A stretch of DNA of 64,000 bases from Rhizodiscina lignyota (Eukaryota), in assembly GCA_010015805.1 (NCBI GenBank), contig ML978125.1:2232001-2296000 (forward strand), written 5' to 3'. The position numbers and the translations under genes were made by a program. This document shows positions 10,494-42,075 of the stretch, one piece after another. Positions within the stretch are counted from its first letter, which is position 1; every line of letters begins with the position of its first letter. The notes beneath the pieces are model-generated. The model had not been told where the DNA came from. It searched no databases and saw only the letters and a program-made list of their open reading frames with translations.

Positions 10494-11110
10494 ACTCTGC
10501 ACCATCCCTTTGACGATACATGTGCGTGGGGCATCTACTCACGCTTCGATCTTTGAGGGTTTTGCACTTTGCGGGGGCTAGTTGTTGCACTTTTGGATGG
10601 GCTCACAGTGACCACAAAGTAGCATTTGCTTCACAGCATCTTGGTTACTGTCACGAATCTCTTTCCTTTCTTTGGATGATGTGAATGGACTGCGAATGGA
10701 ACTGGCATTCTGCATGACTGATACCCCGCGCATTGAGGATGGTACATATGCGGCGTTTGGGGGATACTTGTGTCCGAGCGTGCTGGAGTATCTTAAAGTC
10801 TATTCTGTAGTTCGCTATGCATGCAGGCAGAACAATACAGGACAAATTCAATACCAAACTCGATTTCTGTGCCCCGGTTTAATCAGTCGTGTGACTGAGC
10901 CCATATTGATGCGAATCATTCTTCGATCGGAACCCCACCATGCCCCTCTTGCCTTATCAGAACAGCTTTCAAGAGCTATCCTCTCCGCCGGCCACTTAAA
11001 CTGAATGTCCTTCACTAACTTTGAGCTGGCTCATGACTCGCAACTCAAGGGGTTAAATTCATCTAGTTTCCTGTCCTCCAGCTAGAGTCCTAATATCCGA
11101 AGCTGCTGTC

Positions 11111-12089
11111 ATGGCGGCAACCTTAGCACATTCACATGACGGCATCTCGCATGCTCACGACGGAGTGAGAGACCATGGACACAGCCATGAGATACTCGAC
11201 GGACCAGGGAGCTTCCTTGGGCGAGAGATGCCGATAATAGAGGGCAGAGATTGGAACGAGAGAGCATTCACTGTGGGAATTGGAGGGTAGGTTAACGAGT
11301 TTCAACGCTCATCTCATCAACCAAATTCCAGTCAATGTCAACATCTCTCTGCGTGGCCACCTTCTCAATTGAATTCTTCAAATACCTATTGGTTGCTTTG
11401 TATGTAAAGTAAAAATGCTCACAGCCTCCCTCTAGCCCCGTCGGCTCGGGCAAGACCGCCCTGATGCTCGCCCTCTGCCAATCCCTTCGCGACAAAATCT
11501 CGCTCGCCGCCCTCACAAACGACATCTTCACCCGCGAAGACCACGACTTCCTCGTGCGGCACTCCGCTCTACCAGCATCCCGCATCCGCGCCATCGAGAC
11601 GGGCGGCTGCCCACACGCCGCCGTGCGCGAGGACATCAGCGCGAACCTGTCGTGCCTCGAGGACCTGCACCGCGAGTTCGACACGGATCTGCTGCTCATT
11701 GAAAGTGGAGGGGATAACCTGGCAGCGAACTATAGCAGGGAGTTGGCAGATTTCATCATTTATGTCATTGATGTGAGTGGTGGGGACAAGATTCCGAGGA
11801 AGGGCGGGCCTGGCATCACGCAGAGCGATCTGCTGATTGTGAACAAGACGGACTTGGCGGAGGCGGTGGGCGCCGATTTGGGGGTGATGGAGAGAGATGC
11901 GAGGAAGATGCGGTACGTCCGATTGCGCTCATCAACTCTGTGTGATATGGTACTTACTCAAGATATAGCGAGGGCGGCCCGACAATATTCGCGCAGGTGA
12001 AGAATGGTAAGAACGTGGATCACATAGTCAACCTAATACTCAGTGCATGGAAGGCAAGTGGAGCAACGCAGGCACAAGGCAAGAGATAA
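11111..12089 (+). CDS. ureG: Urease accessory GTPase UreG
   Basis: His-rich N-terminus ([20 protein letters not shown]), P-loop [33 protein letters not shown] and NKTD. Two introns; last exon ends ...GKR TAA at 12089. Confidence 0.96.
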
Positions 12090-15000: not shown

Positions 15001-15665
15001 GTTGAGGGACTGGGCCGTTGTCGTTGTCGAGTTCGGCTCGACACTGTTCCTACTAAAGCAGGTTCATTTGTTGGCGAAGGATGGTCGGTGGACGTAGCGG
15101 ACGCTGCAGAATCAGTCGGTGGAAGTCTCGCGTCGGTGCTGTTCACCCCAGGAATAAAATCCTCCAAAAAATCATTGTCGAAATTGTCCCAAGATACTGA
15201 ATCAGACTCATCCCGTCTCTGGTTCGCGTGGTCTTTCTCCTTGTGTGAGGCCGTAGAGCCGAAAGACTTGTCCACAGACTCTCTTAGATTGGTTCGACGA
15301 AACCCAACAGGTGCCCGCTGCCTGTCTATTGTCCTCTCTTCTCCGACATGAGAATTTTTGCTCCACGAATAACCATCTTTGCCTGTATTTAGGAGGCGAG
15401 ACTGGTCATGCAGCTCGTCAATCTGCAAAATATGCCTTTCTTTGGCTCCACGTTCGCCAGATAGAGCGCCATTCATCGCAAGCGGTCGTACCACTGGTAG
15501 TGAATAGAATCGCCATTGTGAAGCCGATAATGCCTGGAATCTCGGTGCATGCTGCTTATCGCTCGTTAGCTCGCGGCCCAGCAAATTTGAGAGGGAGAGG
15601 AAGACAAACTGCAATGAACAATTTGCCATGGCGAGGCGCCACCCTGCTAATTGAGAGTTGGGCAT
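12090..15665 (-). CDS. Large conserved fungal hypothetical protein, probably a mitochondrial helical-repeat (PPR-like) protein
   Basis: Intronless 1191-aa ORF with ascomycete-type blocks (WPPWKENRTGLDE, GWDTDQSPTVQTR, WAARITTTRTAREAW, LHAFVRALG, WGGWPT). Function is inferred only. Confidence 0.6.
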   Translation of the reverse strand: MPNSQLAGWRLAMANCSLQFVFLSLSNLLGRELTSDKQHAPRFQALSASQWRFYSLPVVRPLAMNGALSGERGAKERHILQIDELHDQSRLLNTGKDGYSWSKNSHVGEERTIDRQRAPVGFRRTNLRESVDKSFGSTASHKEKDHANQRRDESDSVSWDNFDNDFLEDFIPGVNSTDARLPPTDSAASATSTDHPSPTNEPALVGTVSSRTRQRQRPSPSTHLINALRLTDNHHVLPLATTRQDLSYRNARKANALPIEGHRPSELHFQVRDSRRTISLQSILAKHIMSMHSNELSNNPIDFMSLPHYLKHESFSDEETRYLECRGYLVDDLSRWAAVLVAKNLPKALESFSGSSENDMSKTHQRLPLFLFLFLLRRVHVNALSLQLLLKHAWAILGASSPATTDKRSSYEAGKDDSFHQDALSEFEINETLHNETSISDQTVFIMFVRLSRHARKVWPSALINISSIVATYLRQHHSSAGLFAEQAAERASRLTLFYNRALSLLAFPASIRPFASSIFQEQAQFNLLRAMTEQLPPLAVTQEGYRGVARVQLARNKTDRERDWSSLQAKSWPPWKENRTGLDEGKDLEYGLSRAGHSIRRMMEAGYADESWENVARLFTGWDTDQSPTVQTRHLLPTNEQKEEMLWAARITTTRTAREAWACFESFKDSGAPPSEIVYREMVKRLLLVHKTTLKAITQKEIKTTESAREQDLDEELRGQDADEEEYTEWKPFAALPGEAIEPFPDPISPQELTYTRTDPPGPDALFQRMLDEGIDPSGQTRAILAKHANSVEQAVRFLEANSALGKREAEILLSSNEEDIADLQQLPLSRFSAFVSVLSRFQSCPVYFGASRSHEYQRWSHILPGWSLRWDSLAVHALRLVMIRKPIHRKPWYNVLRALAHPGVRIVHLAPGSVVGTNTLVAWKLMRSILSAMQSTGVGLDTEGFRYISNGIENAALSSLIIQSKGGEEGWRKYEKEKAHRQHLKDAGFTTSKRSLSSSTFAEANQVLDKSSQFLRVLFQSIVFGSRRGDNGMNPSAQPRPDLPYIPHLLSIPNSAELHAFVRALGMLGDHEGIWSLVQWMVENKDDLWIQVKEEINGRTRWRRLLTAIRVFLEYPHLDTRVREFKVPSEMKPASPDLMALVRAKLMSIEEWGGWPTAQEVRKYVWTGLRQDPPQKNATVWKVISMNKS

Positions 15666-16335
15666 GCCATCTGAAGAGCCATGAATCCACAGCGGTCAAT
15701 GGCATTCATTTGTCCAGCTCGTCCACAGCGCACAGTTTGCTCGTCTGGTCGCACGTCAGGAGCTCTCGAGCTGCATTTCGGTCACGTTCAGGGACAATCG
15801 GCGGCTCGGCCGGGTAAATGTCGGAGATGCGCGCAGGGCTTGGCGCATGGCCGAAAGTGTGGATCGCAGTCAACACGTCTGCGCAGAGCCTGACTCCGAC
15901 ACAACCAATATCACTCTGCACTTCTTCTTCCCAATTTCCTCATCGGTGCACAGGCATCACATCTCCTGCGTGTATTCCTCGCTATTGACGTGAGGTTCGT
16001 TGTTGCTGTTGCGATCGCAGCCCTGCAGCGCCTCGCGGGCCTAAGAAAGCGCCCTTGCCATTTGTCGCTAGGTGTCTTTGCACTTTGATCTTCACCAACA
16101 CCCATCATCGTCCCGCCAGACCCCCGACCTTCGACGCTCCGGACGCCGCAACCCACTTGAACTTTAGGAACAACTCGTCACGCGTGCCGACCGACTGCCT
16201 CAGCGTGTCTCCGCCGACTCATCACATTCGGTGGCGCGCCCCTGGGGCTCGGGAGTGTTGCGATCCTCTACGCCCTCGAAAAGCGCGTCTCTGCATCCCT
16301 ACACGTCCTCCGAGCGCATACCACAATTGGTCGAG

Positions 16336-19252
16336 ATGGACAACCACGCAACAAACGGCACGCTGACGCCGCCTTCAATGGATGGCCAAACAAGCGCAGC
16401 TGCCGTACCTACGGCCAAACGAAAACGAAGCGAGGGCGACATTTCCGTGCATATGAATGGCACGATAGCAAATACCGACGCTGGCGAAACGCGGCCTCCG
16501 AAGAAGTCGAGACAGTCCAATGGCGACGATAGCCTACATTCCATATACAGCATTCTGAAAAGGTATGTAATAGGTTCCCTGATATCAATATCAGCCCACC
16601 TGTCTTTGCGCTTGCAGTCTGCAAATTCCGCTGACTGACGGTTTTTACTACAGCCACGATACTTCTCCTTCACTCCTAAACCTCCCACTCGAGCCTGATT
16701 CTCAATCTACGTCAAACGCAGATGAGCTGAATTCCACGGGCGTTTCCGCTTCCTCCCAATCCATATCATCAAAGATGGAATCGGGATCCTATTCATCTGC
16801 TGAGCAACTGGTTAAGGACGTTGAGACTGCAGGTACAAAGCTTGTCGCTCCGCTCCTAGCCAAAGAGGCCACACAGCCCCCTGGGAGTTACGCAAAGGTG
16901 AATCCTTTGTCACTCAGCGAAACGAGGTTGATGACTGGTGCATTGGCGTTGCAAAAGATGGCTAAGAGCCTGGTTACCAGTGAGCAACGGCTCAAAACAC
17001 ATCTGGAAGAACAGTCTGGAGCAAACAAGAATGTGAAGGAAGAGTACCCAAAGAACAGTGGTGCAATTGAAATCAAGCTGGAAAGCAACGACAACGATTC
17101 TTTCGATTCATCAGCAAGGTCAGTCCTGACGCTCTTTGGAAATGCGCAAGGTCCAAAGCAACTCTTTTCGAGTCTACAAAAACCTTCCAAGGCTGCGACT
17201 GTCCTTGGCAAACGGTCGGCATCAGAGCTTGATACCAGCGTCGATGTGAACATGCCAATCCGCGACGAACTTCTGCCAAACATGATCTCTACCACTAAAA
17301 TTCTACCTATCGATACGGGCGATGCGCTGTCAAAGAAGCGGACGCCGACGATTGGCGAGCTGTTTGCTGCACCGGCAACGCTACATCCTCTCACACCACC
17401 GAAGCATGCGAAGTCCACTACTGCGCGCGCGCCAACAATAACCTGGGAGTATCCAGAGTCGCGGCCGAAGACACGCAGAGGCAGCTACAATTATTCGCGT
17501 GAAGTTCTTAGTGTTGGCCAGTGGCTAGGATACAAGGGAGTCGACCAGCCACAGGAGCCAATTTCCCCTGAAGCGAAACGGAAGCAGAGGGATCGCGCAC
17601 TAAGCACTGGTGAGGCGCAACCAAAGCTTTCAGAAGAAGCACGACTGGCGGTGGAACAAGCGAAAGAAGAGGCCTTGTTCCGCAGTGTGTACTCTAGTTT
17701 CGCACCCACCCGAGATGATTCTGCAGCAGTCGTGCCAACTGAGACAAAAGACATGGTTTGGTGGAGCAGGGTTGGAGAGAAAAAGTTCCAGCAAAATTTT
17801 GCAGTTGATATACAGTTGATAGACCCTGAGCTCATGGACGACGATACAGCGTCTGGGAACGTGACCAAGGATGACGAGGACGCAGCATTCCGGGAAGCCA
17901 TTGAGACATTCGAACCAGAAGGTCCATACGAAGATCCAGCCAGCAAGAGCGCCCCAAAGGACGACATGGACGAGTTACTGAAGGAAATTTCCGAGCTCCT
18001 GGAGACTCTCAATTCGTACCAGAGGATTCGGAATGCCTCTCTTGCTTCCCATTCTCACAACCGAACACCAAGCGTAACCAGCCAGCAAGCAACATTGGCA
18101 AGTATGTCTGGTTCACCAACCTCTCCTACGAAGCCCGAAGTGGACGTCTACAATATGCTCAAGATGCAACTTTCCATCTTGATCAACCAACTCCCACCCC
18201 ATGCGGTTGCGAAGCTCAATGGCGATCAGTTGGCCGATCTCAACATCAGCAAAGACATCCTCATCGAGACCAAAAATTACCGTGGAGTCATGGAAGAGGA
18301 CCAAATAAGTCGTCTAGCGAAAGCTGCTGTACTGAGTGCCGCGCCAGCACCAAGTATGCCCCGAATGAACTCTAGCAGTGGACAATATCCAAACTCTACG
18401 CCACAGTACGCTCGTCCGTTGGCCGGTGGGCAGTTAGGGGCTGCTCGGCCGCAGGCCAATTATTACCCACAACAACAGCCACCAAATCGTACCCCCGGTA
18501 TGCCTATCCAACGAACGGCAACAGGTCAATTCGCAACACCGACCGCTTTTGGCGGTAATAATCCTTCGCGTCCTACCTTCACAGCCCAAAGCTTCGGGCA
18601 GAACCCACCAAGACCGGGTCCAGGCCCAGCTTACGGCTCGACCTCATCGGGCGGCAGCCAACATATCTATCCTCAGCAGTCGCGCACCCCGCAGCAGTTC
18701 TTCCAGAATACCCCTCAAGCTGCTACCCAGAACCGGAACTACGGCCAGCAAGCGACAGGCGCCAATTATCAGCCTCGACCTGGCAGTCATGGTCCCGCTC
18801 AACAAGCTCCAATGTACGGCTATCCTGCAAACAACACGACGAACTCGCAGAGCTCGAGCCAAAGCCCACATGCGCGCACGGCGAGTCCGCTTAAGACTCC
18901 CCTTCCGCAGAATCAACAAGCTCGGCCATCCTATCCACAGCAACCGAGCGCACCCACGTATGGCACCCCCCCTACATCTACTGCTAACGCCGCTGCGGTA
19001 GCCGCGAACAGCCGCCCATACATGCAAGGGGGAAGCCAGCCAGCCACGCCATCCGGTGTCGGGCCAAGCGGATTCCACACGAGCATGAGCAGCGCGGAGC
19101 AGCAGAGCATGATGGAGCGCCAGCGTGCGCTTTTGGCGGGACAGCAGCAGCAGCAACGGGCTAGCTTGGAGCAGGCGATGGGGACTGCGAGTCCAGCTCC
19201 GGGCGCCAATGGACAGACGAAGCAGGTGAGTGGTGCTACGGTCGGAGCATAG
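16336..19252 (+). CDS. Rsc58/BRD7-9-like chromatin-remodelling subunit with Q/P-rich tail
   Basis: ATG at 16336, NLS KRKR, intron ~16563-16653. Bromodomain-like SIISKMESGSYSSAEQLVKDV, then QWLGY and YSSFAPTRDDS motifs, then a low-complexity Q/P/G C-terminus. Confidence 0.55.
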
Positions 19253-22888: not shown

Positions 22889-24984
22889 ATGCGTCCTACT
22901 ATCATAAGGGCACTGGCGTTCTCTTGGATGCTGGCAGCTCCAGCGTCGGCCATTGTTGGCCGCTCCTCAACATCAACGGCTGTCGAGATCCCTCCTAGTG
23001 AATACTTGTAACTCTCAATAACACCCAACCTCCTCTAAACCGCTGACGAAGCGTTAGCGAAGGCAACGACGGACCATGGAGCTCCTTTTTCCTCCGCGTT
23101 GGAACCCCCGAACAAGACGTCAGAGTGCTTGTATCTACGGCCTCTCCAGAGTCAATGGTCGTTTTGTCAGAGTACGGCTGCTCAACGGCTGCCTTTACGA
23201 CAGTGCCGGCGAACTGCGCTGTCTCGAGAGGTAACTTGTTCAACCTCAACAAATCATCCAGTTGGCAAGACCTAGGCATCTACGGAATCAACCAGAATGG
23301 TGTCGGTCTGGAGGCCAATCTTGGCTATTCTCAAAGATCAGACTTCGCGCTGGATACTCTAGGTCCAGGTCTTACCGGACCGAAGCTCGAAAATCAAACC
23401 GTCGCCGGCATCGCGACTGCCGAGCCATTTTACCTGTAAGAACGCCAATGCGGTCCATGGATTTTTTACTGATTCGAGAATGCGTACAGCGGAATATTCG
23501 GCCTCAACCCTCAGCCGGTAAACTTCAGCTCGCTGGGGAATTTCTCCTCCCCCTCGTTCATTACAACTCTAAAAGATAAAGGCGTTATTCCAAGCCTAAG
23601 CTGGAGTTATACAGCGGGCGCCAAGTACCGTAGGTACCCCTATTAACTTTAAACTTGGATTGCTTCTATTTCTAATTCGGTTGCGTTCCAAACTAGGTCT
23701 CAAACAAGTCTACGGGCAACTCATTTTCTCCGGATATGATACCTCCCGCTTTACCGCGAACTCGGCGTCGTTTACTATGGCAGGTGACATCACGCGCGAC
23801 CTCGTTGTATATCTCCAGTCTATAACCTACAGCGGAACAAGCTCATCCGTGTTACTTTCCGACCCGATCCAGATCTTCATTGACTCGACCGATCCGAACA
23901 TGTGGCTCCCGAAGAGTGTCTGTACGGCCTTCGAGCAGGCTTTCGGGCTTACACTCGACGACGCAACTGGTATATATCTGGTAAACGATACTCACAACGC
24001 CGAACTGCTCAACTCGAATGCTCAGGTGGCCTTTAGGCTATCTGATGTGGCCTCCGGTGGGGATTCTGTGACGATAACTCTTCCCTACGCAGCCTTCGCC
24101 CTTACTGCGCAAGCTCCTTTAGTAAAGAACCAAAGCTATTATTTTCCGCTGAAACGCGCGGACAATTCGACTCAGTACACGTTGGGCAGAGCATTCTTGC
24201 AAGAAGCGTGAGTGAGAGGCATGCGGTCATTTTAAAAGCATGACATTAACCCCTCGAGTATAGTTACCTCTCCGCCGATTACGAACGAGGCGTCTTCAAT
24301 GTATCGGCATGTGCATGGAACGAGGGTGCCCAGGAAAATATCGTTACCATAACACCCAAGGGCTCCGCCACGTCCACTTGCTCTGGAAGCGCATGTTCGT
24401 CTAGTTCTAGTACTTCAGGAGGCTCATCATCGCTCAGCCGCGGTGCTGTAGCTGGTATTGCGATCGGGTCCATCCTTGGCGCCCTAATTCTCGCCGCAGT
24501 AATCTTCTTCATTATCCGCCGTCAACGCCAAAGGAAAGCGTTCAAAGCTACTGACCCTGAGCCGGATATGACTGTCCGCGAGGGCCCAGTCCTCAACGGT
24601 GACAACACCATCGTTCACGGCGCAGAACCCACTGGGACGCAAGCAGCAAAGTTTTATTCTCCAGATAGCGTCGCAGGCAGTTCTGCCGGGATCAACGAAG
24701 GGAGCAATGTGGGCGAGCACGGTCCAGAGTTGGACGGCGACGACACAGAGATCCAACCGATCTACCACGAACTGCCGGCCGCCGAGGTCGGGAGGACGGA
24801 GCTGGACCCGGAAAGCTCGGTGGACTCACGCGACGAGAGAGGAGCTGAAAGGCAAGCCCAAGGAGGAGACGAGCTCGCCGGGTTTTCGCCAATAGTATCT
24901 TCGCCGGGGACTGCGAGATGGCAGGATAAGAGGAGGACTGCAGCATCAGATGACTTGGTGTCTCCCGTAACACCTCATGACTAG
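22889..24984 (+). CDS. Membrane-anchored peptidase A1 (pepsin-like) protein, probably catalytically inactive
   Basis: Signal peptide MRPTIIRALAFSWMLAA; GNDGPWSSFFLRVGTPEQ; GIFGL; IPSLSWSYTAGA; IDSTDPNMWLP; YTLGRAFLQEA|YLSADYE; TM GAVAGIAIGSILGALILAAVIFFII. Four introns. Confidence 0.85.
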
Positions 24985-25683
24985 ACCACGTACAGTAGCT
25001 AATAGTATTTGAAGTTTTTCGTATGAGGGGGAGCCGTACCTGGAGGAATCGTATACACTCCATGCAGACTAGGACATTCGTAACTAATGTTGCCTTGATC
25101 TGTGGCGGCGTATCCAACGACATTGTCACCCGGAAAGAGAGGTTTGGTTAGAGCCCCATTGCTCCAAGCTTCACATAGAGGCGTATTGTGGTGCATGTTG
25201 AAGTATGTATCCGTATCGTCTTGTTGGATTTCCACTGTGCTTCTCCACATAACCCACAGCTTCCTAGATTATTGACTTCTCAAAACAAGAATTATTTTAA
25301 ACGTCGATTTTAGAATATTCCGTACTAACGTTAGTATTGTAAGTTAGGTGCGCACTGTCAGCTATAACCGACCACCCCCTGTCGCCCCGCAATCTCTTAC
25401 TACAATTTGCCAGGCTCCCAGGTACCTGCAGCAAACATTACACCGACAGAGCGAACAGTACACTATTCAACACTAGCACGCACATGGAGGTGCGCTAGAC
25501 GTTCAGTGGCTCAGTGGAGGAGAGCTCTTCCATTGATGGAATAATCTCCAAGAATCTCCTAAGTTCATTAGCCAATTGAAAGAATTTCAATGGTCTCGCA
25601 AAGTTTCATATGTGCTGTAAGTTGCCGCCGTGACATGTTATTACTGATGTCTGGCATTCTGCTTTCTCGATATCAAGTCCAAG

Positions 25684-28467
25684 ATGCGTCTGTATCTCGT
25701 TTCTCTGTTACTTGTGAGGTCTCTAGTTTTCTGCCAGTCCAACGATACGCTGGGACTGTCAAATGGCTACTCTACATACACAACTACGAACTGGAACATC
25801 AAGCTGGTCAAGGATTCACAAACACTAGCATCTCTTAAACCGAGTGGATCGAATACATTCGACTTCTCCCCATTTGATGTGCTGGGCAACCGTTCCGCAA
25901 ATGGGCAATATCACGTTGGGGATCTCACTTTCCGCTTCGACTAGAAGGCTCTAATTCATGGACTGATGGTAATACGGCTTCGAATCGGGCACCCGTGAGA
26001 AGGGGCAGCAATGGGAGTGCGCTTGCTACCTCAGATTTGGGTCCCACGCTTCCCGGATTAGCGGATCTGGACATTATTCGGCAGTGGATAGATATCGATG
26101 GAGATCTAGGACTTCTATACACAATCACTAATACAGCCAATGGTACTGTAGAACTCGGCAGCTTGGGGTTTCCGATTGAATTCAACAATATCTTCACTGG
26201 CCGACCTGCAGCAGACGTCGAAGCAAACTGTTCTCTCCAAGATCCCTACATTGGTCTCGACGCAGGTTACATTCAAGTGACCCCAGTCGACGGCACGGGA
26301 TCAGCCCTCGTTGTAACACCACTGAAAGAAAGCAAATTCGAAGCCTGGAGGTTTCTCAACGAGACGTACAAAGGGCCACCCCTCTACTATCAGAGCCAGA
26401 CCTACGAAGCCAACTACGAGTTTCAGGTTTATACGAAGGCATATGCTGAAAACGAATGGAAGAATGTCACCCCTTGGAATGAACCTACGTCGCGAATGTT
26501 GAGGTCAAAGGAGACGTTGACAGTTGGCCTGCGGTTTTCACTTGCTGCGGGAGGAGTAACGGACATCGCAGCCACCGCAATTCGTGCTGGCATTCCGCAG
26601 GCGCAAAGCGTTCCGGGATATATCGTTCCTTCTGATGCAGAAACCACTCTGACGCTCAATACCACGTCCCGAGTTCTCAACATAACCATCACACCTGCAA
26701 ACGCCTTAGCCATAACGCCCATCTCAAACGGCGTATACACCATTACTCCGGCAAGTAATGCCTATGGGCGCACGCGCCTTACGATAGCATATTCCGATGG
26801 CCATCAACAAACTATCCACTACAACATCGTCAAGTCCGCGCCCACCGTCCTGAGCGACCTCGGCCACTTCTTGACTACAACGCAATACTACACCAATACC
26901 TCCGACCCGTTCCACCGAGCTCCTTCTGTACTCTCTTGGGATCGCTCAGTCAACAACTTCGTCCTTCAAGACAACCGCGTATGGATAGCCGGTCTCAGCG
27001 ACGAAGCAGGCGCAGGATCATTCCTCGCTGCTACGATGAAACAGTCGGTACAAGCAAATGCAGACGAGATTGCGAGATTAGAGACCTTTATCCATCACAC
27101 TATGTGGGGCGTTGTTCAAGTGAGCAACGGGACCGATCAATACGCGGTGCGGAAGAGTGTATTTTACTACGGCATGCCTGGGTACCCGTACGATCCGAAT
27201 ATTGAGTGGACAGGCGCGTGGAATAAGACGGAGGCGTACAGTACGAGCAGAGCGTACGATTATGTGCACGTCAGTGCGGCATATTGGGCCTTGTATCGCG
27301 CCGCGAGAGCGTTTCCGGATCTGGTGAAGCTGGCGGATTGGCAGTGGTATCTGAACCAGGCATATCAGACGGTAATGTATGCGACGCAGATGACTGGGAA
27401 TGATACGTGGTTTGTTGGGTATGCAGATGACGGGCTAATGGGCGAGACGGTGTGGGGTGAGATCCTCAAAGATCTTGGACGTGAGGGCATGGATGATAAG
27501 GTGACGCAATTTGAGGCGAGAATGAAGGCGCGCGCCAAACATTGGAACTCACTGGCCGTACCATTTGGCAGCGAGATGGCATGGGATAGCACGGGGCAGG
27601 AAGGAGTGTACTACTGGTGCAAGTCAGTCTCGGCATTTCGTCGATGCGGAGCGTTATAGAACTGCTAACGCGGCTTCTAGTTATTTCAACCTCACAGCAA
27701 CAGTAACCAAGACCATCAACTCCATCCTGGGCTATATGCCAACCGTCGCGCACTGGGGCTGGAACGGCAATGCACGAAGATATTGGGATTTCTTGTATGG
27801 CGGCAAGATTGAGCGCATTGAGCGGCAGATTCACCATTATGGCTCTGGCTTGAATGCGCTGCCTCTACTCGAACATGTTCGTAACAACTCGTCGTCGATA
27901 TTATCAGATATGGATGCATATATGTTGCGAGTTGGGTATGGCGGAAACTCTGGCCCCTTGTCGAACGTCGATTCCGACGGGTTCGCCAGTGCAGCGTTCC
28001 ACAGTTGGCCGGATACGCTCAAGTGGGATCCATACAGTGGTGATTATGGTCCAAACTTCGTCGGACTCAGTCTCGGAGCAGGTTGTTTCATCGTACAGGA
28101 GCAAAGTGGGAATGTACAAACTATGGTGTACGGAGGCAATGTGAAGACGAGAAGCAATGCGACTCTACTTGTTGAGCCGCGAGATGCAGTACGAAGGAGA
28201 GTGTACATTGGTGCTTGGAGAGTACAGGTGGAGCTTGATGCGGGCGCCATCCAACAGATACAGGTCGACACGAGTAGCCAGACAGCTACAATTACGATAG
28301 TCGATGCGGTCACCGCTCAGGCCGCAAAGGCGAAACAGGCAGTTGTATGGGTGGACAACTACCAAGCTGGTGGTTTCAAAGTGACCACCTCTGGTCTACA
28401 GGCATCAAGAAAAGGCATTCTGGTGCTTTTGGTGAACGGAACGGCCAACTTCCAGGTTGGGAAATAG
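25684..28467 (+). CDS. Secreted DUF5695-family putative glycoside hydrolase, with an apparent -1 frameshift at ~25938
   Basis: Signal peptide; FDFSPFD; DPYIGLDAGY; DPFHRAPSV; RVWIAGLSDEAG; SRAYDYVHV; GLMGET; PFGSEMAWDSTGQEG; HWGWNGNARRYWDF; ERQIHHYGSGLN; WDPYSGDYGP. Intron ~27623-27680. Confidence 0.85.
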
Positions 28468-28757: not shown

Positions 28758-30659
28758 TCAATTGTACCGCTGTATCGCTACCACCTTGTTGGTCGTTCCA
28801 CAGATCGGACATTTCTTCATCTCAGCACTCAGCATCCTCCAATTTCCACATTTCTCGCATCTGCTGGCCAATACATCGCGGCTGATCTTGTCCGGGTGAA
28901 AAGCCAGATCGTCGTCATAGTACCTGAACAAGCCTGCCCATCGGTTCCGGTACTTGCCCGTCTTGATGACTTCCGCAATCATCTTCTCCGACAAACTCAA
29001 GACCTTATCAACTACCTCTTTACTGGGCGCATCCGGAGCCCCCTCTAGTAGCGGAATGATGTTGTCCATGAAGGAAATGTACTCCGGTCTGTTTGCTCCC
29101 CATTCCCAAGTCGTCACGAGCTCGGCAACGCGGTCAAACTGCGTAAAGTCCTCGATATGCTGCCATTCGGCGTTACCGGTGCCGCAGAGGTACTGCCATA
29201 GAGGCCCAAGCCGTCCAATCTGTGGGGAGCGGAATAGCAAGTAGTTGCCAACGTTCATACGATGCAGATTCTCGATTCTTGGGCCGCAAAATTCGTTGTA
29301 AGAGTCCAAGATGGCGCGGCGGGCAGTCGAGCCTTGAGCAGCGAGGTATTTTGGCGTCTTTTCCGCAAGAAACACAGAGGTTCCCATGCTACAGTTGATT
29401 CCCGGCGAGTAGAGTGGGTTTGTGAAGCCCGTGGCATCCCCGATAGCGGCCCAACCTGTTCCTGCGGCGACTGGTGACTGATAGGTCAAGCTTTTGCGAA
29501 TGAACCACGTCGGTTTTGGGCCATATAGATCAGTTATCAGCACGTGTTGGTCCATCAGCTCCTGCATTCGAGGATATCGAGAGGTGATCCACTTGAACTT
29601 TCGCTCGGCTTCGCAAGTGCCGTAAGAGTTCAGATCGTCTGGATAGACAACGTCATTGCGAAGTGCGTAACCAATGCTGACTACCCAGCGGAACTTAAGC
29701 TTGAACTTCTCAACCAGCTGATGTGTTGATGGGTATGAGTCGGGAGCGGTGTTCGCCGCATTGAAGTCGAGCAGGTGGTTGATCATGGCAATGAGGTTTG
29801 GAAGTGGGCTCCCTTCCCACGATGGAAGACGGATGACCCAAGCCCATCCTTCGGCAATACAGATATGGTTCGTATGGCAAGATTCGTAATGATCAAGAGG
29901 TATGTCCGACTCGTCTCCAGACATCTCGAAATACGCCCAAAACGCATCCGTATTGAAAGGAGGCAAACGAGTGGTCTTGGAAGCCTTGGACGCGAGTCTG
30001 CGAAAGCGGCCAGTGCCATCAACAACAAGATCTGTGCTAATCTGGCCTTGACCGGAGCCATTCAACACGTCTACATGGCCGATACCGCCCGAATCCGCTT
30101 CTGGTAGTTGAACGGAGTCGATGTTTGCCGAGTGACCATGGAGAACTCTGACTCCCAATCTCTGGGCAAAGAGCGTAAGCAGCAGCTCGCTAATCTTGCG
30201 TTCAATCTGAAGCGTGGCCACAGAATCGCCTGGTGGACCATTGGCGCAAAAATCAGTGTAGCCATCGCGATCTCCGTTGTGGGGCAGAAAGTAGAAGGCG
30301 AGGCCATCCTTCACACCAAACAGTCTCCAGAGAAGCGCATTGCTGATGCCGATGCTCTTGAGCCACACACCAAAAGTCGTTAATGTGCTCTCTCCAATCT
30401 TGTAGCCTGGTGACTGTGACTTCTCCAACACAGTGATAGATATCGCGCGGCCTGAACCGGACTGCCGCAACGATTCGGATTTGATATGTGCATGAATGGC
30501 ATAGATCAGGGAGTGAATACCACCTCCGATCACAACCACATCCGAATGCGAAGGGATAGAGGAATCGCAGTTCTGAGAGTTGAGGCACTCGCTGTCTGAT
30601 GGAGTCGGACTAGCGAACACCAATCGCTTCATGTAACCGGCTAGATCATCCAAAGACAT
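28758..30659 (-). CDS. Flavin-dependent halogenase of the MalA type with C-terminal Zn-binding CxxC...CxxC
   Basis: Intronless 633 aa. DVVVIGGGIH, YKIGEST, FGVKDGL (catalytic Lys), LQIER, DGTGRFR, HTNH, WAWVIRLPSWEGSP, IGDATGFTNPLYSPGIN, CEKC...CPIC. Confidence 0.92.
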   Translation of the reverse strand: MSLDDLAGYMKRLVFASPTPSDSECLNSQNCDSSIPSHSDVVVIGGGIHSLIYAIHAHIKSESLRQSGSGRAISITVLEKSQSPGYKIGESTLTTFGVWLKSIGISNALLWRLFGVKDGLAFYFLPHNGDRDGYTDFCANGPPGDSVATLQIERKISELLLTLFAQRLGVRVLHGHSANIDSVQLPEADSGGIGHVDVLNGSGQGQISTDLVVDGTGRFRRLASKASKTTRLPPFNTDAFWAYFEMSGDESDIPLDHYESCHTNHICIAEGWAWVIRLPSWEGSPLPNLIAMINHLLDFNAANTAPDSYPSTHQLVEKFKLKFRWVVSIGYALRNDVVYPDDLNSYGTCEAERKFKWITSRYPRMQELMDQHVLITDLYGPKPTWFIRKSLTYQSPVAAGTGWAAIGDATGFTNPLYSPGINCSMGTSVFLAEKTPKYLAAQGSTARRAILDSYNEFCGPRIENLHRMNVGNYLLFRSPQIGRLGPLWQYLCGTGNAEWQHIEDFTQFDRVAELVTTWEWGANRPEYISFMDNIIPLLEGAPDAPSKEVVDKVLSLSEKMIAEVIKTGKYRNRWAGLFRYYDDDLAFHPDKISRDVLASRCEKCGNWRMLSAEMKKCPICGTTNKVVAIQRYN

Positions 30660-32908: not shown

Positions 32909-34684
32909 TTAGTGGCCTCCGATCTGGTGCCTGCTGATTGGCCTGATCCACGAGACCGCCAAATTGATCGCAATGGTGATGATACCGATAATCCAGAAAG
33001 CACGGGGGAAGTTCGTTCCATTGTACCTGTACTGACAGTCAGCATCGTTGTAAAAGATACAGCAGGAGCAAGAGTTCAGGCTTACCGGAAGATAATGGCA
33101 AAGATGATACCACCAAAGTTTCCAGCTGCGCCAGTGAAGCCGGAAACCACTCCATTAGCAAAGGGCGAGACGTGCGGTACGAGCGCGAAATTGATCCCGT
33201 TGCCGCCTTCGAGGAAGAAGGCCATGCCTGCAATTAAGCCAAACATCGTACTCTGGTCGTGGCTGTCCACAACGCCGATGACGATGAGAAAGATTCCAGT
33301 GATGATACCATATGTGTGAAGTAGCGCCTTCTTCCCCCAGACCGAGCCTGTGGATCGGTATACAAGATCTGCGACAAATCCGCCCAAGGGTCTAAAAATG
33401 ATGTTAAGCAAGCCAAACATCGCGGCCCAGTTCCCTTGTCCCTGGAGTCCGAGGTAGGGGAAATTGCGTTTGTAGAAATTACCCAAGATACTGTTGACGG
33501 CAAGCTCTGCACCAAAGCTGCAAAAGTAGCACGCCCCGGTGACGAGAGTCTGGAGGGTGAAAAGAACCTTCACGATCTCCTTGAAGGACGGACTCTGGAT
33601 AACTTCGCCTTTTGCTTCCTCGACCTGATATTCTTGTCCGATCGCAGCCTCAACTTTGGCGTCAGACGGAAAGTCCTTCTTGTCCTTCTCTTGTTCCTTT
33701 TCAAGCTCTGATGCTGCGGAGCCAGATGGTTTACGGTCACCGAGCTCGCCGGGTAGGTCAACGATTCCGCCGTCACCGGTCGTCACCGAAGCACGCCGGA
33801 AGTTTTCTTGAGCAGCAGTCTCGCGCTCCGACCATTTGCCCGTAGGGCAGTCGGGGCAGAGGAGAAGGAGAGCTGCTGCAGTCACAACGATGAGCACACC
33901 AGGCACGATGAAGTCCACACGCCACGCAACATGAGGGGTGAGCCCATCTGAGATGAGGCTGTTGTAGATAGCAGGCATGACGAAGTATGTGATGCCGCCA
34001 CCGGAATTTCCGAAACCACCTGTAAGGGCATTGGCTGTTCCGACGACGCTCTTGTCAAAGAATCCAGTTGTCCATACTTGGCAGGGTACGAAAGCACCAC
34101 CTAGGATGCCGATGAAAAACCGGAGAGCGTAGAGCCCCGCTGCATTAGTGACACCACCAGCACAGAATGTCGGAATGGCACCAGCGAGGAGGCATCCTGC
34201 GAACGTCCAACGAGGACCGAAGCGGTCACATGCGGGCCCAGCTATAAGACGTATGAGGAGACTATAGGGCATAAAGAGTTAGACCAGACCATTGCCTTCG
34301 TACAGCAGAAGTTGACTTACGTTGCAGTGAGGCCGATAATATTTGAATTGGCGACTTCAGCTTGCGAAAGATGGAGATCTTTGGCGATGATGTCGCTAAG
34401 CAGCGGAGGGAAGGCATACCTGCGGAGTGCATTAGAGTAGCTCCCAGTGTCAACGGTTGCATGGATCAGAGATAAGGCTTAGATGTGGCCCGATAGCAAC
34501 GGGTAGCGTGTAGAACAGAATGTGCGATGACATACCATGACCAGAATGCAATCATAAAGCCAAACCAGGCGAATGTAAACACTCTGCCATAGAGGTTGAT
34601 TGGGTTGAGCGCTGGGATTGATTTGGCCTTGCCGTTGATGGGGTTGATTTCTGGCGCTCGCCAGAGGAGAGTTGGGTCGAACAT
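32909..34684 (-). CDS. crnA: High-affinity nitrate/nitrite MFS transporter (NRT2 / CrnA-NrtA family)
   Basis: [33 protein letters not shown], nitrate signatures GGFGNSGGG and [32 protein letters not shown]. Three introns; stop at 32909. Confidence 0.93.
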
Positions 34685-37493: not shown

Positions 37494-39104
37494 TTACTTT
37501 GAAGTAATGTTTTCCGGCTTGCGGCCCCATACAACGTAGCTGTGATATTTCAAACGTCAGCGTTGGTTCAAAATCGTTGGCAAAGAGTGGTCGAAACGGA
37601 AAAGGATTTCCGAAATTGGAATTGACCGCTCAGAGCACAAGCAAAACCCAAATCAGGCAGATACAAAGGGTCCACGTACACTTTCTGATAGGCGTGCACC
37701 CTCTTGTCCTGCAAGGCCTTCCTCACATCCACAAGGTATACTTCTATTTCTTCCTTCGTCCACCCGAGTCCTCTATGGAAGAATGCCAGACTGAAGCCTT
37801 GCAGTCCATCTAGCATATTCCGCTCATGAAAGCGGCCGATCAACTTGAATTGAGGGTCCTTGGGCCATGGATTGATCGGCACCTTGAACACTTCCTCCTT
37901 GACGTCCACGAATCCTGCCTCAGTGTACCAACGCTTCAGCTTGTTCGCGATCCGAAGTGGTCGACCCATATTCATGGCCGCCTCGTCATGGAGCTTTGCC
38001 CAGCGAAGGAGTGGCCAGTCGGCGGGCATAGTGCCATCGTCACAATATATGGATGGATATACCTCCTGGGACTCAAACCAGCCACCAGGCTCGACGTAGC
38101 GGAACGCTTTGCGGACAACATCACGGAAGTCGGTGAAAGAGCCGAGCATTGTGCGGGTATGGATGTAGGAGATGGAATTGGGTGGCATCATCCAGTCGTC
38201 TTCAGAGGCATCGTCGATGATAAACTTGACGTTCGCAGGATACCTATCAAATCACTGGAAGTCAGTATTGTGCCAGAACAGAGGACCAGCACATGCTACT
38301 CTTCATCGCAGGCATAGGCATGCATATTCCGAAGGTTCGAAATATTCCAAAGAAGCTGCTGACGTACCATTCTGGCTGGATGGGAGAAAGATCCGTTCCA
38401 ATCACCTATTCCTCCCGTCAGCGTCTCCAATGCTTCCGTTTCAGATACTTGACGTACCTGAGCATTCGGAAATTCTCGCGCCACCTCAATTGCCCACTTG
38501 CCGGTCCCGGTCCCAAGATCCATGATCTTAATGGGCGCGTTTAGAGGTGCAAATATATTCCTGCCACCAAACAGTACTTTATAGACGTAGAAGGCTAGGT
38601 CGAGTCTCTCATTTTCGGCCTAGATATTCGGTGAGTGAGGAAAGGCTTATCGAGGGAAGATATGGTCATACAAGGTCATTCGGCAGCATATAGGCTGGAT
38701 AGCGTGTCAGTATCGGAAGCCTTGTGAGAGATGGTTTGGGGAAGATACTCACAGCCTGCCATGTACGAATGATACGTTCGGCCATTCTCTTGTATGTAGT
38801 TGAAGATGCTGTCTCGAAGAGACTTTGTGCTACTGTAGAAGTTGTCAGCAAGGCTCCCGATACGCGATTGAAATGCGCACTCTTCCTCTGTCCGCTCTCC
38901 GACTTCGCTCAAGTTCTCGGACTGCCACGATCTCAGTCGCGCTGCCATCAATTGGCTAACGACACTGCTTCCAGAACTCACATCATCTGGCTCGATGACT
39001 TGTCCCACGGAACGCCCATCGTTGGATGATCCTGCGGAGAACTGTGAATTGAGACTCGTAGAGCTCGCCGCCATGTTCATCGAAGAGACGTCCACCACCC
39101 GCAT
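37494..39104 (-). CDS. Class I SAM-dependent methyltransferase, LaeA-like (Llm/TAM family)
   Basis: YIQENGRTYH, YMLPND, MDLGTGTGKWAIEVA, GTDLSPIQP, FIIDDASEDDW, YIHTR, PGGWFESQE, GFVDV, INPWPKD, final exon YVVWGRKP. Multiple introns; start uncertain. Confidence 0.9.
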
Positions 39105-41696
39105 GGGTCGCTATCCCGCGCTCTTGTGACAGTGACACACGACCAGCAGACTGGGCCACCGCGCTCCTCACACAACGCAGCGTCTGCCCAAGAGTAACAA
39201 TTCGCAGCTGGAGCGGCGAGCGACGTCGAGGCTAGACCCACGGGGGCGGGAGCGAGTAAAAAAGCAGCTGGAGGCTCCTCAGGCACACAAGGCTCGCCTT
39301 TTGCGGCAAAGAGCAGAAAAAGGTCGAGGCAGCACCAGTTCGCTGGGAATTCTTGCAACAACCTCTTCCCTCGAGAATCCCAAGCGAGCGGGTCGAGGGG
39401 TCGAGTTATTGGATCCCGTGGGCATGGGAAGGGCTCTGCTAAGCTCAGTTCCTCCTCACCGGGCAGCCGGCTCTATGGCCATTTTGCAGTAGACCGGACG
39501 ACTCGCTCAGATGCGCGTCGCCGCAAGCGGACTAACGCCGTCTGCAGTACGGGGCACGGCGAGGGGCAGCTGGGGCGTGCGCTGCAAATCACTCACCTTC
39601 ATCCGGCAAACGTTCCATGTCGAGGCTGGTCCATCGTGCAATGCCTGGCTGTCTGATCAGACTGCCATGGGTCGCCGACGCTCAGGCAAGACTCTAGCGG
39701 AACTGCGGCCCGTCTAGCAGAGCTTATTTTGAGGGGAAGCCAACCTGCAACTTCAGGCCTGCCGTCTTTGCCCTCCAACGTTGCATTTTCTTGTGATATA
39801 ATTTTCGGTCCACTGTCGGGTTTGTGTCCACCTACGGCCCGCCACCGTCGTACGTGACGCACGAGACCGACGCCGACACCGCGGCGAGCGCACGTCGACG
39901 TCTTCGACGCTGCTCTTCGTGTGACACACCCTCCGAGCGAGCGAGCGAGAGGCGGCAGCCCGTCATGTCATCCGCAGTGATGTGTCGCCAGGGATGATTG
40001 CGATTTCGAGGCTGCCCTGCTGAAATCCCCGCATCTCCACCGTGTCGAGATACTTGATCAACGAGCATGAATCCTGAATCAAATGAAACATACGTCTGCC
40101 CGCCGCTCCTGCCGCTGTACATGAGAGCGGTGACAGCTCTCCAGCAGCCATGAGCCACACAACTGTCAGACATTTTTTCAAGAAGCTCAGCCAGGTTTCC
40201 AGGTGAGTGGAACCGTGAATCCCACGTGTCAATCATCGCCAGCCACCTCCCCTAGCCTGGAGTGGCTGCCGGGTGGAGTGGAACCGCGTATGATTTGGGC
40301 TTCGTGAGCCTTTGGGCACCTCTTCTTTTGCTGCCAAGCTGACGGCTGTGGATGCATCCTTGCGGGCACTGCCGCAGCCTTGCGGAGAAGAAGCTTATAA
40401 ATTATATACAGGAGGTCCGGACGGAGCCGCAGGCTGACGACCATCCCCACTTGCTGCAAGCAAAGTTCCCTATGAGTTACATACAGGAGGCCGTGGTTTC
40501 GCGTTACTGGTGCTCGAAGAGATTGCATATTAGGGCTGTAAAAGTCCAAGCCAGACAAGCTGTTCAAAATTACCTTGCGCGAATATGAAGGCCGACTCAA
40601 ATCTCTAGAGGCCGCACGAGACAGATCATCCCCTTTCGTATGGAGTCACAGACATAGGTGAGCTTGCTGGTTCTGACAGACGAGGGTCTTTTCTTTCAGG
40701 ACCTGCAGTCCTAATCAAGCTGCACTCCTGATTTCGTCAATTGTGCTGCAGCGGAAACGCTCCACGCAACTGGCACAGACCTCACCATAATGGACGATTT
40801 CTCTGGCCACCCGCATCCGCACGATCAGCACTGCATCTCGGGTGATCCGGCAGTGTTTCAGTGAATGCATGTTAATGAATTCGTAATCCCGTTGGACAGG
40901 CCGCTGCGTTGTATGTTCTTTTGTCGTTCCTAAATGTGGTAGGATATGCACGTAGTGGCTCCCGGAGATTTTTCCGGCATAAGGCGAACGCCTCATCGCA
41001 TCTATACTGCCGCCGGACCAATGAGAACACACGGGATGGCGGTGAGTACTGAAGTCGTGGCTAGAAGCTCTGACAGCAAGCACAGAATAAGGCTCTTCGG
41101 TATGCTTTGACGAGCCCTAACGACGTATCGTCTCGTGCGCAGGAGCCAGAATAAGTATCAAATAGGCGACTGTGCCGATCGAAGGAGCGAACCTGCGCTT
41201 CAGCAGTCAGCAGTGCTTTCTTGGCTTGAGAAGTCTTTCAGATTCGTCGAAACAAGTATGCAGTAGACATGAGGAAAGAAATAGAATTGATGATCATATG
41301 CAAGGAAATGACCGAGGTAATGGGGAGAGCAACCAAAAAGCACCACTGCGATTAACAGAAGCAGGAATGAAGACGACTGTAGCACTCTCTTCTCAGGCAG
41401 CCGCTCATGTGTCAACGACTTAGGCTCAACTGTGCATTGAGCGGGAGTGCTTTCAAAGCAGAAGGCCAAACATAGCTCACACATTATGTAAAGACATGAA
41501 CGGCGTTCGAAATGTCCAAATACGATAAAGTTTTCCGAGGTCAAATGGATGTCTTCTGGAACCAAAATTCCCAAGGCGTTCTGAGTTGAAACACCGGAAA
41601 CACTGCGGAATAATACAGACAGGTGAAGAAGGGAAAGAGAGGTGCGGAGAGAGGGTACAATCAAATAGCTCATGCATCTAAACGTGAAGAAGACGA

Positions 41697-41714
41697 CAAC
41701 AACAACAACAACAA
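41697..41714. repeat. (CAA)6 microsatellite
   Basis: Directly visible in the sequence. Confidence 0.85.
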
Positions 41715-42075
41715 CGAAAACTTGCTATTGTAGAAAGGCACTGAGAGCATCGCCGTTTAAAATCGAATGAAATTAAACCTTCAAGATTTAATCAGTGCCT
41801 CGAGCGTGACAAAATAGCTGACCGCCAGCGAAGCCCGCAACGACGAAAGTGGCGCACTCGCACTTTAAGGCAAGCGAGACTGGAGCTGAAATCTTAGTTC
41901 CACATTCAATGTTCTTTGGAGCTAACTTCACAATAACACGCCATTGCAAAGTTATACGATTTTATTGCTTCCAGAGGCCCGACACAACAGCTGCTCAGAG
42001 TCTTGAACGAAGCTGCGTGCCAACAGTTTTAACTTTTGTCACGTGCCTTGACGTCTATCGCCTGGTCCGTGCCCG

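Follow-up and report, generated by a model that had tools for sequence, protein, structure and literature searches.

A gene of Rhizodiscina lignyota for a predicted zinc-binding MalA-class flavin-dependent halogenase, in a deep sister clade of MalA and with no core biosynthetic gene found in its surroundings

The object of this study is a gene of the fungus Rhizodiscina lignyota that lies on contig ML978125.1 of assembly GCA_010015805.1, within the 64,000 nucleotides from position 2,232,001 to position 2,296,000 of the forward strand. We call this whole stretch the window, and all coordinates below refer to it. The gene occupies 28758..30659 on the minus strand and is predicted to encode a flavin-dependent halogenase (FDH) of the zinc-binding class. 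MalA is the founding member of that class, whose members are sought as biocatalysts for late-stage C-H halogenation; to our knowledge, it is also the only fungal flavin halogenase with a characterised structure.

The open reading frame (ORF) starts with ATG and runs uninterrupted through 633 amino acids to a stop codon; the gene model deposited for this locus has 624 amino acids, starts at Met10 and is 100% identical to it. Since the protein aligns end to end with the MalA' structure sequence, without gaps of intron size, its intronless status stands. An earlier note, made from the letters of the sequence, had described exactly such an intact and intronless frame, and the motifs that it quoted are all found in the translation, at the residues given here:

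28758..30659, minus strand: coding sequence of the Zn-binding flavin-dependent halogenase, MalA family (ORF reading, phmmer, AlphaFold2, Foldseek)
30510..30527, minus strand: GGGIHS, residues 45-50, the GxGxxS variant of the flavin adenine dinucleotide (FAD) dinucleotide-binding motif (translation and alignment)
30300..30320, minus strand: FGVKDGL, residues 114-120, with Lys117, equivalent to MalA' Lys108 (translation and alignment)
30237..30251, minus strand: FCANG, residues 137-141, with Ala139 at the MalA' Ser129 position (translation and alignment)
29823..29849, minus strand: GWAWVIRLP, residues 271-279, the WxWxI(R/P) halogenase motif, followed by SWEGSP (MalA' has GWVWVIRLP)
29394..29426, minus strand: FTNPLYSPGIN, residues 412-422, the Fx.Px.SxG halogenase motif (translation and alignment)
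29163..29186, minus strand: loop CGTGNAEW, residues 492-499, where MalA' has AGIE(494)RYL (HMMER and MAFFT alignments)
28800..28859, minus strand: C-terminal Cys4 zinc ribbon CxxC-x12-CxxC, Cys601/604/617/620 (aligned to MalA' Cys597/600/613/616)

The catalytic lysine and both halogenase motifs, WxWxI(P/R) and Fx.Px.SxG, are thus present, and GxGxxG appears in the clade-conserved form GGGIHS. We take the MalA' Lys108 equivalent, Lys117, to be the lysine that directs the haloamine or HOCl. In Pfam, the protein matches Trp_halogenase (E 4.8e-12; score 45.9 bits, cut-off 21; strongest over residues 40-112), and the zinc-ribbon matches at its C-terminus stay below threshold; the four-cysteine site is predicted from the alignment to the cysteines of MalA'.

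A phmmer comparison with all chains of the PDB returns 14 distinct sequences at E<=0.01. The best five are MalA' in its wild-type and mutant forms, with E-values from 5.1e-158 to 1.2e-156: residues 18-622 align with residues 16-618 of MalA' (5WGR) at E 5.1e-158 (HMMER), an extent and a score that exclude a chance match, and the identity is 42-45%. The second-best family, RadH (8GU0), follows at E 6.1e-9 and covers residues 35-278 only. The sole one of the 14 that bears the name of a tryptophan halogenase is 9LU2, labeled “putative”, which matches residues 40-114 only (E 3.9e-6); among these sequences, no similarity of the PrnA or RebH type is found beyond the FAD motif.

The predicted structure gives the same ranking. 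An AlphaFold2 model, computed from an alignment of 39 clade sequences, has a mean predicted local distance difference test score (pLDDT) of 89.4 and a predicted TM-score (pTM) of 0.91; its C-terminal blocks have pLDDT 86-93, with short beta strands at residues 598-609. The superposition on the MalA structure that the earlier note had called for now exists: when the model is compared by Foldseek with five MalA' entries, the TM-score reaches 0.91-0.92 when normalized to the query (TMq) and 0.87-0.88 when normalized to the target (TMt), over 638-640 columns. After MalA' come PltM (TMq 0.60) and RadH (TMq 0.46), too remote, as was the RadH sequence match, for a close RadH-type similarity; no entry of PrnA or RebH is found among the best 50 Foldseek matches. 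Both Foldseek and phmmer extend the likeness to the C-terminal domain fold that is specific to MalA. Sequence and model, then, both assign the halogenase to the Zn-binding structural class of MalA type.

Membership in the class leaves room for several positions in the family tree. A homologue search among 8000 scored candidates yields 173 proteins at E<=1e-10. Among the best 120 of these 173, the closest relatives are uncharacterised fungal proteins, 53-77% identical to the halogenase, from Botryosphaeria, Macrophomina, Neofusicoccum, Poronia, Anthostomella, Sordariales, Stachybotrys/Paramyrothecium, Pleosporales and Mycena/Crucibulum, together with 17 from Leotiomycetes, including Botrytis and Sclerotinia. 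MalA ranks far down, at 45% identity; its row, P0089, is the sequence of the E494D mutant, with Asp at 494, which agrees with the title of entry 5WGU.

A FastTree phylogeny of 106 full-length rows splits the family into two clades. Clade I contains the R. lignyota halogenase and counts 40 of the 106 rows; its support is 100, and its stem measures 0.41. The other 66 rows form clade II, which contains MalA, many proteins from lichen fungi and metagenomes, and proteins from Trichoderma, Pyricularia, other basidiomycetes, a chytrid and Calcarisporiella. With IQ-TREE, run in a quick form on 40 rows under LG+C20 with posterior mean site frequencies (PMSF), and rooted on two bacterial homologues from the metagenome loci L018 and L026, the two clades are sister groups: clade I, with 18 rows, has a Shimodaira-Hasegawa-like approximate likelihood ratio (SH-aLRT) support of 98, and clade II, with 20 rows, a support of 91. 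The MalA subclade is made of four rows (P0067, P0080, P0089 and P0097; support 100). Forcing the halogenase and its nearest relative P0003 together with this subclade, a group that was chosen after inspection of the tree, costs 557 units of log-likelihood, and the approximately unbiased (AU) test gives p = 1.1e-5.

In both trees, the halogenase stands outside the MalA clade, among uncharacterised fungal proteins that form a deep sister clade. The MalA-type identity announced in the earlier note therefore holds for the broad Zn-binding class, through fold and motifs, and fails for the MalA clade proper, through both trees and the AU test; a position outside that clade was the very outcome that the note had named beforehand as speaking against it, and in this narrow sense it is what we find.

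Clade I includes sequences from Botryosphaeriaceae, Pleosporales, Sordariomycetes, Botrytis/Sclerotinia and other Leotiomycetes, so that, as far as sequences tell, it is widespread across Dothideomycetes, Sordariomycetes and Leotiomycetes, with a few Agaricomycetes. Searched with a profile of clade I, 1.84 billion representative sequences give 1142 proteins at E<=1e-3, many of them fragments; the number falls to 266 at E<=1e-10 and to 99 at E<=1e-30. By this count the family is compact. The orthologue in Botrytis cinerea is Bcin10g01950, and its 90% cluster has 37 members in at least eight named Botrytis/Botryotinia species and in Ciborinia, a spread that argues for stable vertical inheritance in the Botrytis family. 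A recent horizontal acquisition of the R. lignyota gene was considered and rejected: its GC content at third codon positions is 0.596, within the range of its neighbours (0.49-0.61), and nothing in its composition betrays a recent transfer.

The next question is what distinguishes the two clades at the level of residues, and the counts that follow come from an alignment of 107 rows, 39 of clade I and 68 of clade II. The earlier note had singled out three differences from MalA', taken there for substrate contacts: FCSVG becomes FCANG, AGIE becomes CGTG, and GAGIHG becomes GGGIHS. The differences are real, as the HMMER alignment to 5WGR confirms, and the idea that they are particular to this gene is not borne out. 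At the MalA' Ser129 position, 38 of the 39 clade-I rows have Ala; the third Gly of GxGxxG is Ser in 30 of them, Ala in five and Thr in two, while 65 of the 68 clade-II rows have Gly. Being common to the whole of clade I, the three altered contacts say nothing specific about the R. lignyota halogenase.

The loop around AGIE deserves a closer look. In MalA, Glu494 is described as lying next to the indole NH, and the mutants E494Q and E494D as inactive and weakly active, respectively (PMC8407142; PMC9144378). In the HMMER alignment, the AGIE of MalA' pairs with CGTG, with an insertion of four residues alongside and no aligned Glu; Glu498 of the halogenase falls within this insertion. The MAFFT alignment shows the xER/xDR segment with Glu494 (AG-IE/DRYL) in only four of the 107 rows, which are those of the MalA subclade. 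At the same place, clade I has a longer loop of the type (C/I/S)GTGNxx(W/F)(Q/R), and most of clade II has AGIGIPGWQ. The active-site Glu494 of MalA sensu stricto is thus missing from the halogenase; read from the alignment, Glu494 is a derived state of the MalA subclade, and not a loss in the R. lignyota gene.

Clade-specific positions, defined by a conservation of 90% or more within clade I and a share of 10% or less in clade II, number 20. They include, from MalA' to the halogenase, Pro85->Thr94, Ser129->Ala139, Leu135->Asp145, Leu137->Val147, Gln212->Arg221 and Gly251->Ser260. The His at the MalA' His253 position is kept in the halogenase, as in 11 of the 39 clade-I rows.

Against this background of change, the catalytic apparatus is remarkably stable. 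Lys117 is invariant in clade I (39/39), and a Lys is present in 101 of the 107 family rows; residues T413, N414, P415, L416, S418, P419, G420 and N422 of FTNPLYSPGIN are invariant in clade I; conservation there reaches at least 90% for both Trp of WxWxIR and for the four Cys, each zinc-ribbon Cys being conserved in 105-106 of the 107 family rows. With a mean column identity of 45% in clade I, this conservation argues for purifying selection on the catalytic apparatus. Elsewhere in the family, six clade-II proteins from the basidiomycetes Lentinula, Lyophyllum, Collybiopsis and Mycena (P0114, P0116 and P0118-P0121) have His at the MalA' Lys108 position, and these relatives may, to judge from that residue, have lost the usual halogenation. 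Another clade-II protein, P0110 of Paramyrothecium foliicola, is 1009 amino acids long and carries a precomputed match to PF01757 (acyltransferase_3), as a fused form or as a merged gene model.

We now turn to the surroundings of the gene. A Pfam scan was applied to 134 of the 135 stop-to-stop ORFs of at least 112 amino acids in the window, the 135th being the halogenase; 17 of the 134 match a family at E<=1e-4, and three genes account for two ORFs each. The features are as follows, all from Pfam:

2027-3451, minus strand: AKAP7-like 2',5'-ligase
6585-8532, minus strand: anthranilate synthase I
11413-11997, plus strand: CobW
16583-19249, plus strand: DUF7785/DUF7877
23600-24208, plus strand: aspartyl protease
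24250-24981, plus strand: match to the TM_ErbB1 transmembrane segment, just below the cut-off (26.7 against 27.1 bits)
25648-28464, plus strand: full-length DUF5695 gene in three exons, the main exon with E 1e-229
33085-34278, minus strand: major facilitator superfamily (MFS) transporter
37571-38619, minus strand: Methyltransf_23
elsewhere in the window: uracil-DNA glycosylase, FHA-kinase, bZIP, WSC and DUF3176

The DUF5695 gene and the halogenase stand tail to tail, with 294 base pairs between their ends. No polyketide synthase (PKS), nonribosomal peptide synthetase (NRPS), dimethylallyltryptophan synthase (DMATS), terpene synthase, P450 or flavin reductase is found among the 134 ORFs, and the domains AMP-binding, Condensation, PP-binding and Trp_DMAT are found neither there nor in scans of small ORFs between 19 and 42 kb. 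These scans took in ORFs of 50-111 amino acids at 30.6-42.0 kb (106, plus 11 larger) and at 19.0-28.9 kb (86, plus two larger), a coverage of about 19.0-42.0 kb of the window; they returned nothing biosynthetic, and added just exons of the DUF5695 and methyltransferase genes. A second scan of 23 matchless ORFs, at E<=1, also gave nothing biosynthetic. The earlier note had seen no NRPS, PKS, prenyltransferase or flavin reductase in the flanks of about 28 kb and 33 kb, and the Pfam scans agree; the context of a cluster of the bicyclo[2.2.2]diazaoctane type, with its NRPS and prenyltransferases, is absent from the window.

Among the other neighbours, the DUF5695 and methyltransferase ORFs have no sequence relatives that we could find in the PDB. 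The anthranilate synthase ORF is 64-69% identical to TrpE of many Dothideomycetes and Eurotiomycetes. A functional tie between it and the halogenase, 20 kb away, was considered and rejected, the enzyme looking like an ordinary TrpE and the halogenase relatives in the 30 metagenome loci described below having no such neighbour; judging from the sequences, the two genes probably lie near each other by chance. Two further regions lack Pfam matches: an open frame of 1201 amino acids at 12093-15695 on the minus strand, which gives no family at E<=1 and just a trace of PPR_2 at 12.6 bits, and a chain of seven ORFs of 122-174 amino acids, in shifting frames, at 38679-41724 on the minus strand. The chain, which lies beside the methyltransferase, may be an intron-rich or low-complexity gene.

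The contexts of relatives were taken from 30 loci found in one scan of metagenome contigs. Eight of them, L001-L008, look like clade I, at 48-66% identity. By blastn, L003, L006 and L008 come from one organism (98.6-99.8%) and L004 and L005 from another (99.9%), and L003 and L004 are 76% identical and syntenic: the number of independent clade-I contexts, including the window, is thus five. When the 229 window ORFs of at least 90 amino acids, halogenase included, are compared by tblastn with the 30 loci, the matches are limited to the halogenase ORF and to frames that overlap it. The synteny comparison called for in the earlier note therefore turns out empty-handed, with no neighbour shared across these loci.

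In the flanks of L001, L002, L003/L004 and L007, 77 ORFs reach 130 amino acids; 23 of them overlap the halogenase, and the other 54 were scanned with Pfam. Within 10 kb on either side, L002 has a dihydroxy-acid dehydratase, a DEAD helicase and RPN11; the flanks of L003/L004 have a PurU-like formyltransferase, an AMP-binding enzyme, an enoyl-CoA hydratase, a FAD_binding_4 oxidase, an amino-acid permease and HET; L001 has a fasciclin protein, and L007 a weak match to a short-chain dehydrogenase. These are genes for housekeeping or for simple metabolism, and no PKS, NRPS, DMATS or terpene synthase occurs among the 54 flank ORFs.

Two loci outside clade I have richer surroundings. In L013:5306-16990, the halogenase (9827-11992) is a clade-II relative at 45% identity, and an isocyanide-synthase homologue of the DIT1_PvcA family lies at 5306-6946; its other neighbours are a glutathione S-transferase (GST), an intradiol-type dioxygenase, an MFS transporter and a DJ-1/PfpI protein. 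Together, these genes could make up a non-canonical cluster for an isocyanide, halogenase included. The loci of high GC content (65-68%) hold full-length bacterial homologues. One of them, at L026:2555-9118, is of MalA type with an N-terminal fusion to a cyclic nucleotide monophosphate (cNMP)-binding domain; it is followed by an S-adenosylmethionine (SAM) methyltransferase, and then by a fusion of 1141 amino acids that joins an indoleamine 2,3-dioxygenase, a flavin/NAD reductase and a cytochrome b5. As annotated, this context is suggestive of indole chemistry among the bacterial members of the family.

The reading that we favour, and hold to be rather probable in view of sequence and model, is that the gene encodes a functional halogenase of the MalA class, two-component and dependent on FADH2, which would act in trans on an electron-rich aromatic compound present as a free substrate. 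The frame is intact, the fold, the motifs and the place in the tree are those described above, and the gene is not clustered; from these observations, and by analogy with characterised enzymes, we infer halogenating activity, a free substrate and the nature of the halide. By homology to MalA and to other FDHs, FADH2 would come from a generic flavin reductase of the cell and would react with O2 at the GGGIHS/FAD module, yielding a flavin hydroperoxide. Chloride or bromide would then be oxidised to hypohalous acid; the WxWxIR motif would hold the substrate away from the flavin, while Lys117 would capture and direct the halogenating species (Cl+ or Br+). An electron-rich aromatic or heteroaromatic substrate would be halogenated by electrophilic substitution in a pocket to which the C-terminal helical domain contributes; the Cys4-Zn ribbon would stabilise this domain. 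The substrate itself would be a small diffusible molecule, made elsewhere in the genome or taken up from outside.

Two links lead to the last part of this proposal. The lack of Glu494, together with the 20 clade-specific positions, makes a substrate of the premalbrancheamide alkaloid type unlikely, so that the substrate, as far as residues can tell, probably differs from that of MalA. And since core biosynthetic genes are found neither beside the halogenase nor beside its relatives in the four other contexts, the enzyme most likely works in trans.

Several observations weigh against this reading. The absence of core genes holds within the span of the window, which extends about 28 kb and 33 kb from the halogenase, and the flanks seen in relatives measure at most 10 kb on a side, and just 1-4 kb for L001 and L007: a core gene may lie farther out. 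The neighbours found in L003/L004 (AMP-binding enzyme, enoyl-CoA hydratase, PurU-like formyltransferase and FAD_binding_4 oxidase) could form a non-canonical pathway, and the L013 halogenase beside its isocyanide synthase indicates that small clusters with neither PKS nor NRPS do occur in the family. On the side of the protein, Glu494 is left with no aligned counterpart and no identified replacement, and the 20 clade-specific positions of the alignment are candidate pocket residues.

The halogenase might still be an enzyme much like MalA: a late-stage chlorinase of indoles or indole alkaloids that binds the indole NH as MalA does and has been displaced from its cluster. The common fold and catalytic lysine, with 42-45% identity to MalA', go in this direction, as does the His kept at the His253 position; RumH, the other characterised relative in the literature, is described as working on an NH-heteroaromatic, pyrrole (PMC9643285), and the bacterial homologue of L026 adjoins an indoleamine-2,3-dioxygenase fusion. 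However, the halogenase falls outside the MalA subclade (AU p 1.1e-5), the residue required in MalA for contact with the indole NH has no counterpart in it, the equivalents of MalA' Pro85, Ser129, Leu135 and Leu137 are replaced throughout clade I, and neither an NRPS nor a prenyltransferase is present in the 64 kb; taken together, these points make a displaced MalA improbable. We give equally little credit to a loss of halogenation in vivo, by which the flavoprotein would have drifted to a monooxygenase, binding or regulatory role, or would be silent. A Ser in place of the third Gly of GxGxxG, the missing Glu494, the six clade-II basidiomycete relatives with His for the catalytic Lys, which tell us that the family can lose this residue, the fact that no halogenated metabolite is tied to clade I in the literature searched, and a search of sequencing runs that listed one DNA/contig run and no RNA run for this stretch are all consistent with such a drift or silence. 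They are met by an intact ORF, by a Lys, two halogenase motifs and a Zn site that are invariant or nearly so in 39 members from three ascomycete classes and some basidiomycetes, and by an orthologue kept in at least eight named Botrytis/Botryotinia species and in Ciborinia; moreover, GxGxxS/A is a conserved state of clade I, not a lesion.

The pathway might also be local and minimal, a non-canonical cluster that would do without PKS or NRPS and consist of the halogenase, the MFS transporter at 33085-34278 and the Methyltransf_23 gene at 37571-38619. The transporter lies 2.4 kb upstream, and both genes are within 9 kb of the halogenase and on its strand; the clade-II locus L013 has an MFS transporter 3 kb off, next to its isocyanide synthase, and the bacterial L026 has an adjacent methyltransferase. 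But the MFS, methyltransferase and DUF5695 genes of the window have no homologue in any of the 30 loci of relatives, the ORFs in between have no Pfam match, and both the MFS and the Methyltransf_23 family abound in fungal genomes, so that we find this grouping the hardest of the alternatives to believe.

A trans-acting halogenase raises the question of what clade I does as a whole. We can speculate, and would put it no higher than an outside chance, that clade I is an old, largely vertically inherited and non-clustered fungal lineage that halogenates a common aromatic of non-cluster origin, in a cryptic pathway independent of any biosynthetic gene cluster (BGC) and with an ecological role. The aromatic may be an indole or amino-acid derivative from primary metabolism, a naphthol of the melanin pathway, or a plant phenolic. 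Clade I is conserved in whole genera of plant-associated fungi, for instance in every Botrytis species listed in the Bcin10g01950 cluster, and we know of few or no halogenated metabolites from such genera.

Whatever the substrate, which cannot be guessed from a neighbouring pathway, the roughly 40 clade-I sequences are a concrete set of enzymes, with orthologues in tractable plant pathogens, such as Bcin10g01950 in Botrytis cinerea. If active, they would widen the substrate scope of the Zn-binding class, and would point to halogenated fungal metabolites missed by genome mining based on clusters. Should the enzyme be just the trans-acting tailoring enzyme of a remote cluster, it would be a routine addition to a known family; the finding would have greater weight if clade I turned out to serve, in plant-associated fungi, a halogenation pathway that depends on no BGC.

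That homologues of MalA are numerous and uncharacterised is already in print: a 2022 review counts 277 uncharacterised analogues in MycoCosm, with identities of 38-77% (PMC9144378). The present analysis adds that the R. lignyota halogenase belongs to a distinct clade, that its differences from MalA define this clade, that Glu494 is exceptional in the family, and that non-clustering recurs in five contexts. A search of the literature by title and abstract found no characterised member of clade I and no new member of the zinc-binding flavin-dependent halogenases; no paper on Bcin10g01950 turned up under that name, nor among the papers listed on flavin, halogenases and Botrytis cinerea.

Compared with known systems, the halogenase shares with MalA/MalA' of Malbranchea aurantiaca (5WGR; malbrancheamide) the fold, the catalytic Lys, WxWxIRLP, FTNPLYSPGIN, the Cys4 ribbon and the His at the His253 position. 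It differs by its place in the other deep clade and by its longer loop at the place of Glu494, which it lacks; the MalA' residues Ser129, Pro85, Leu135, Leu137, Gly251 and the third Gly are replaced clade-wide by Ala, Thr, Asp, Val, Ser and Ser. MalA belongs to a cluster with NRPS and prenyltransferase genes, whereas the window holds no such cluster around the R. lignyota gene. RumH, from the rumbrin polyene cluster of Auxarthron umbrinum, is a pyrrole chlorinase that its authors place phylogenetically close to MalA and describe as acting on an off-line (free) substrate (PMC9643285). It is, by this published description, a second characterised member of the broader family that works on free NH-heteroaromatics; unlike the R. 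lignyota halogenase, its gene is reported inside a ten-gene cluster of highly reducing PKS (HRPKS) type (PMC9643285).

A precedent for the proposed mode of operation is given by ArmH1-5 of Armillaria mellea and PloN of Lachnum palmae, described as fungal halogenases that are encoded outside their clusters and act in trans on what clusters elsewhere in the genome produce (PMC9144378). This is the mode that we suggest for the R. lignyota enzyme. We take ArmH1-5 and PloN to be FDHs of other types, with no zinc ribbon. Rdc2/RadH (8GU0) and PltM share with the halogenase the FDH superfamily, the FAD module and the catalytic Lys; their similarity is remote, and neither matches its C-terminal region. 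In contrast, the bacterial Zn-ribbon homologues of L018 and L026 are full-length, at 29-36% identity over residues 5-627, and have paired cysteines at the C-terminus, CxxC...CxxC in L026 and CxC...CxxC in L018: this bacterial pair is the outgroup to both fungal clades.

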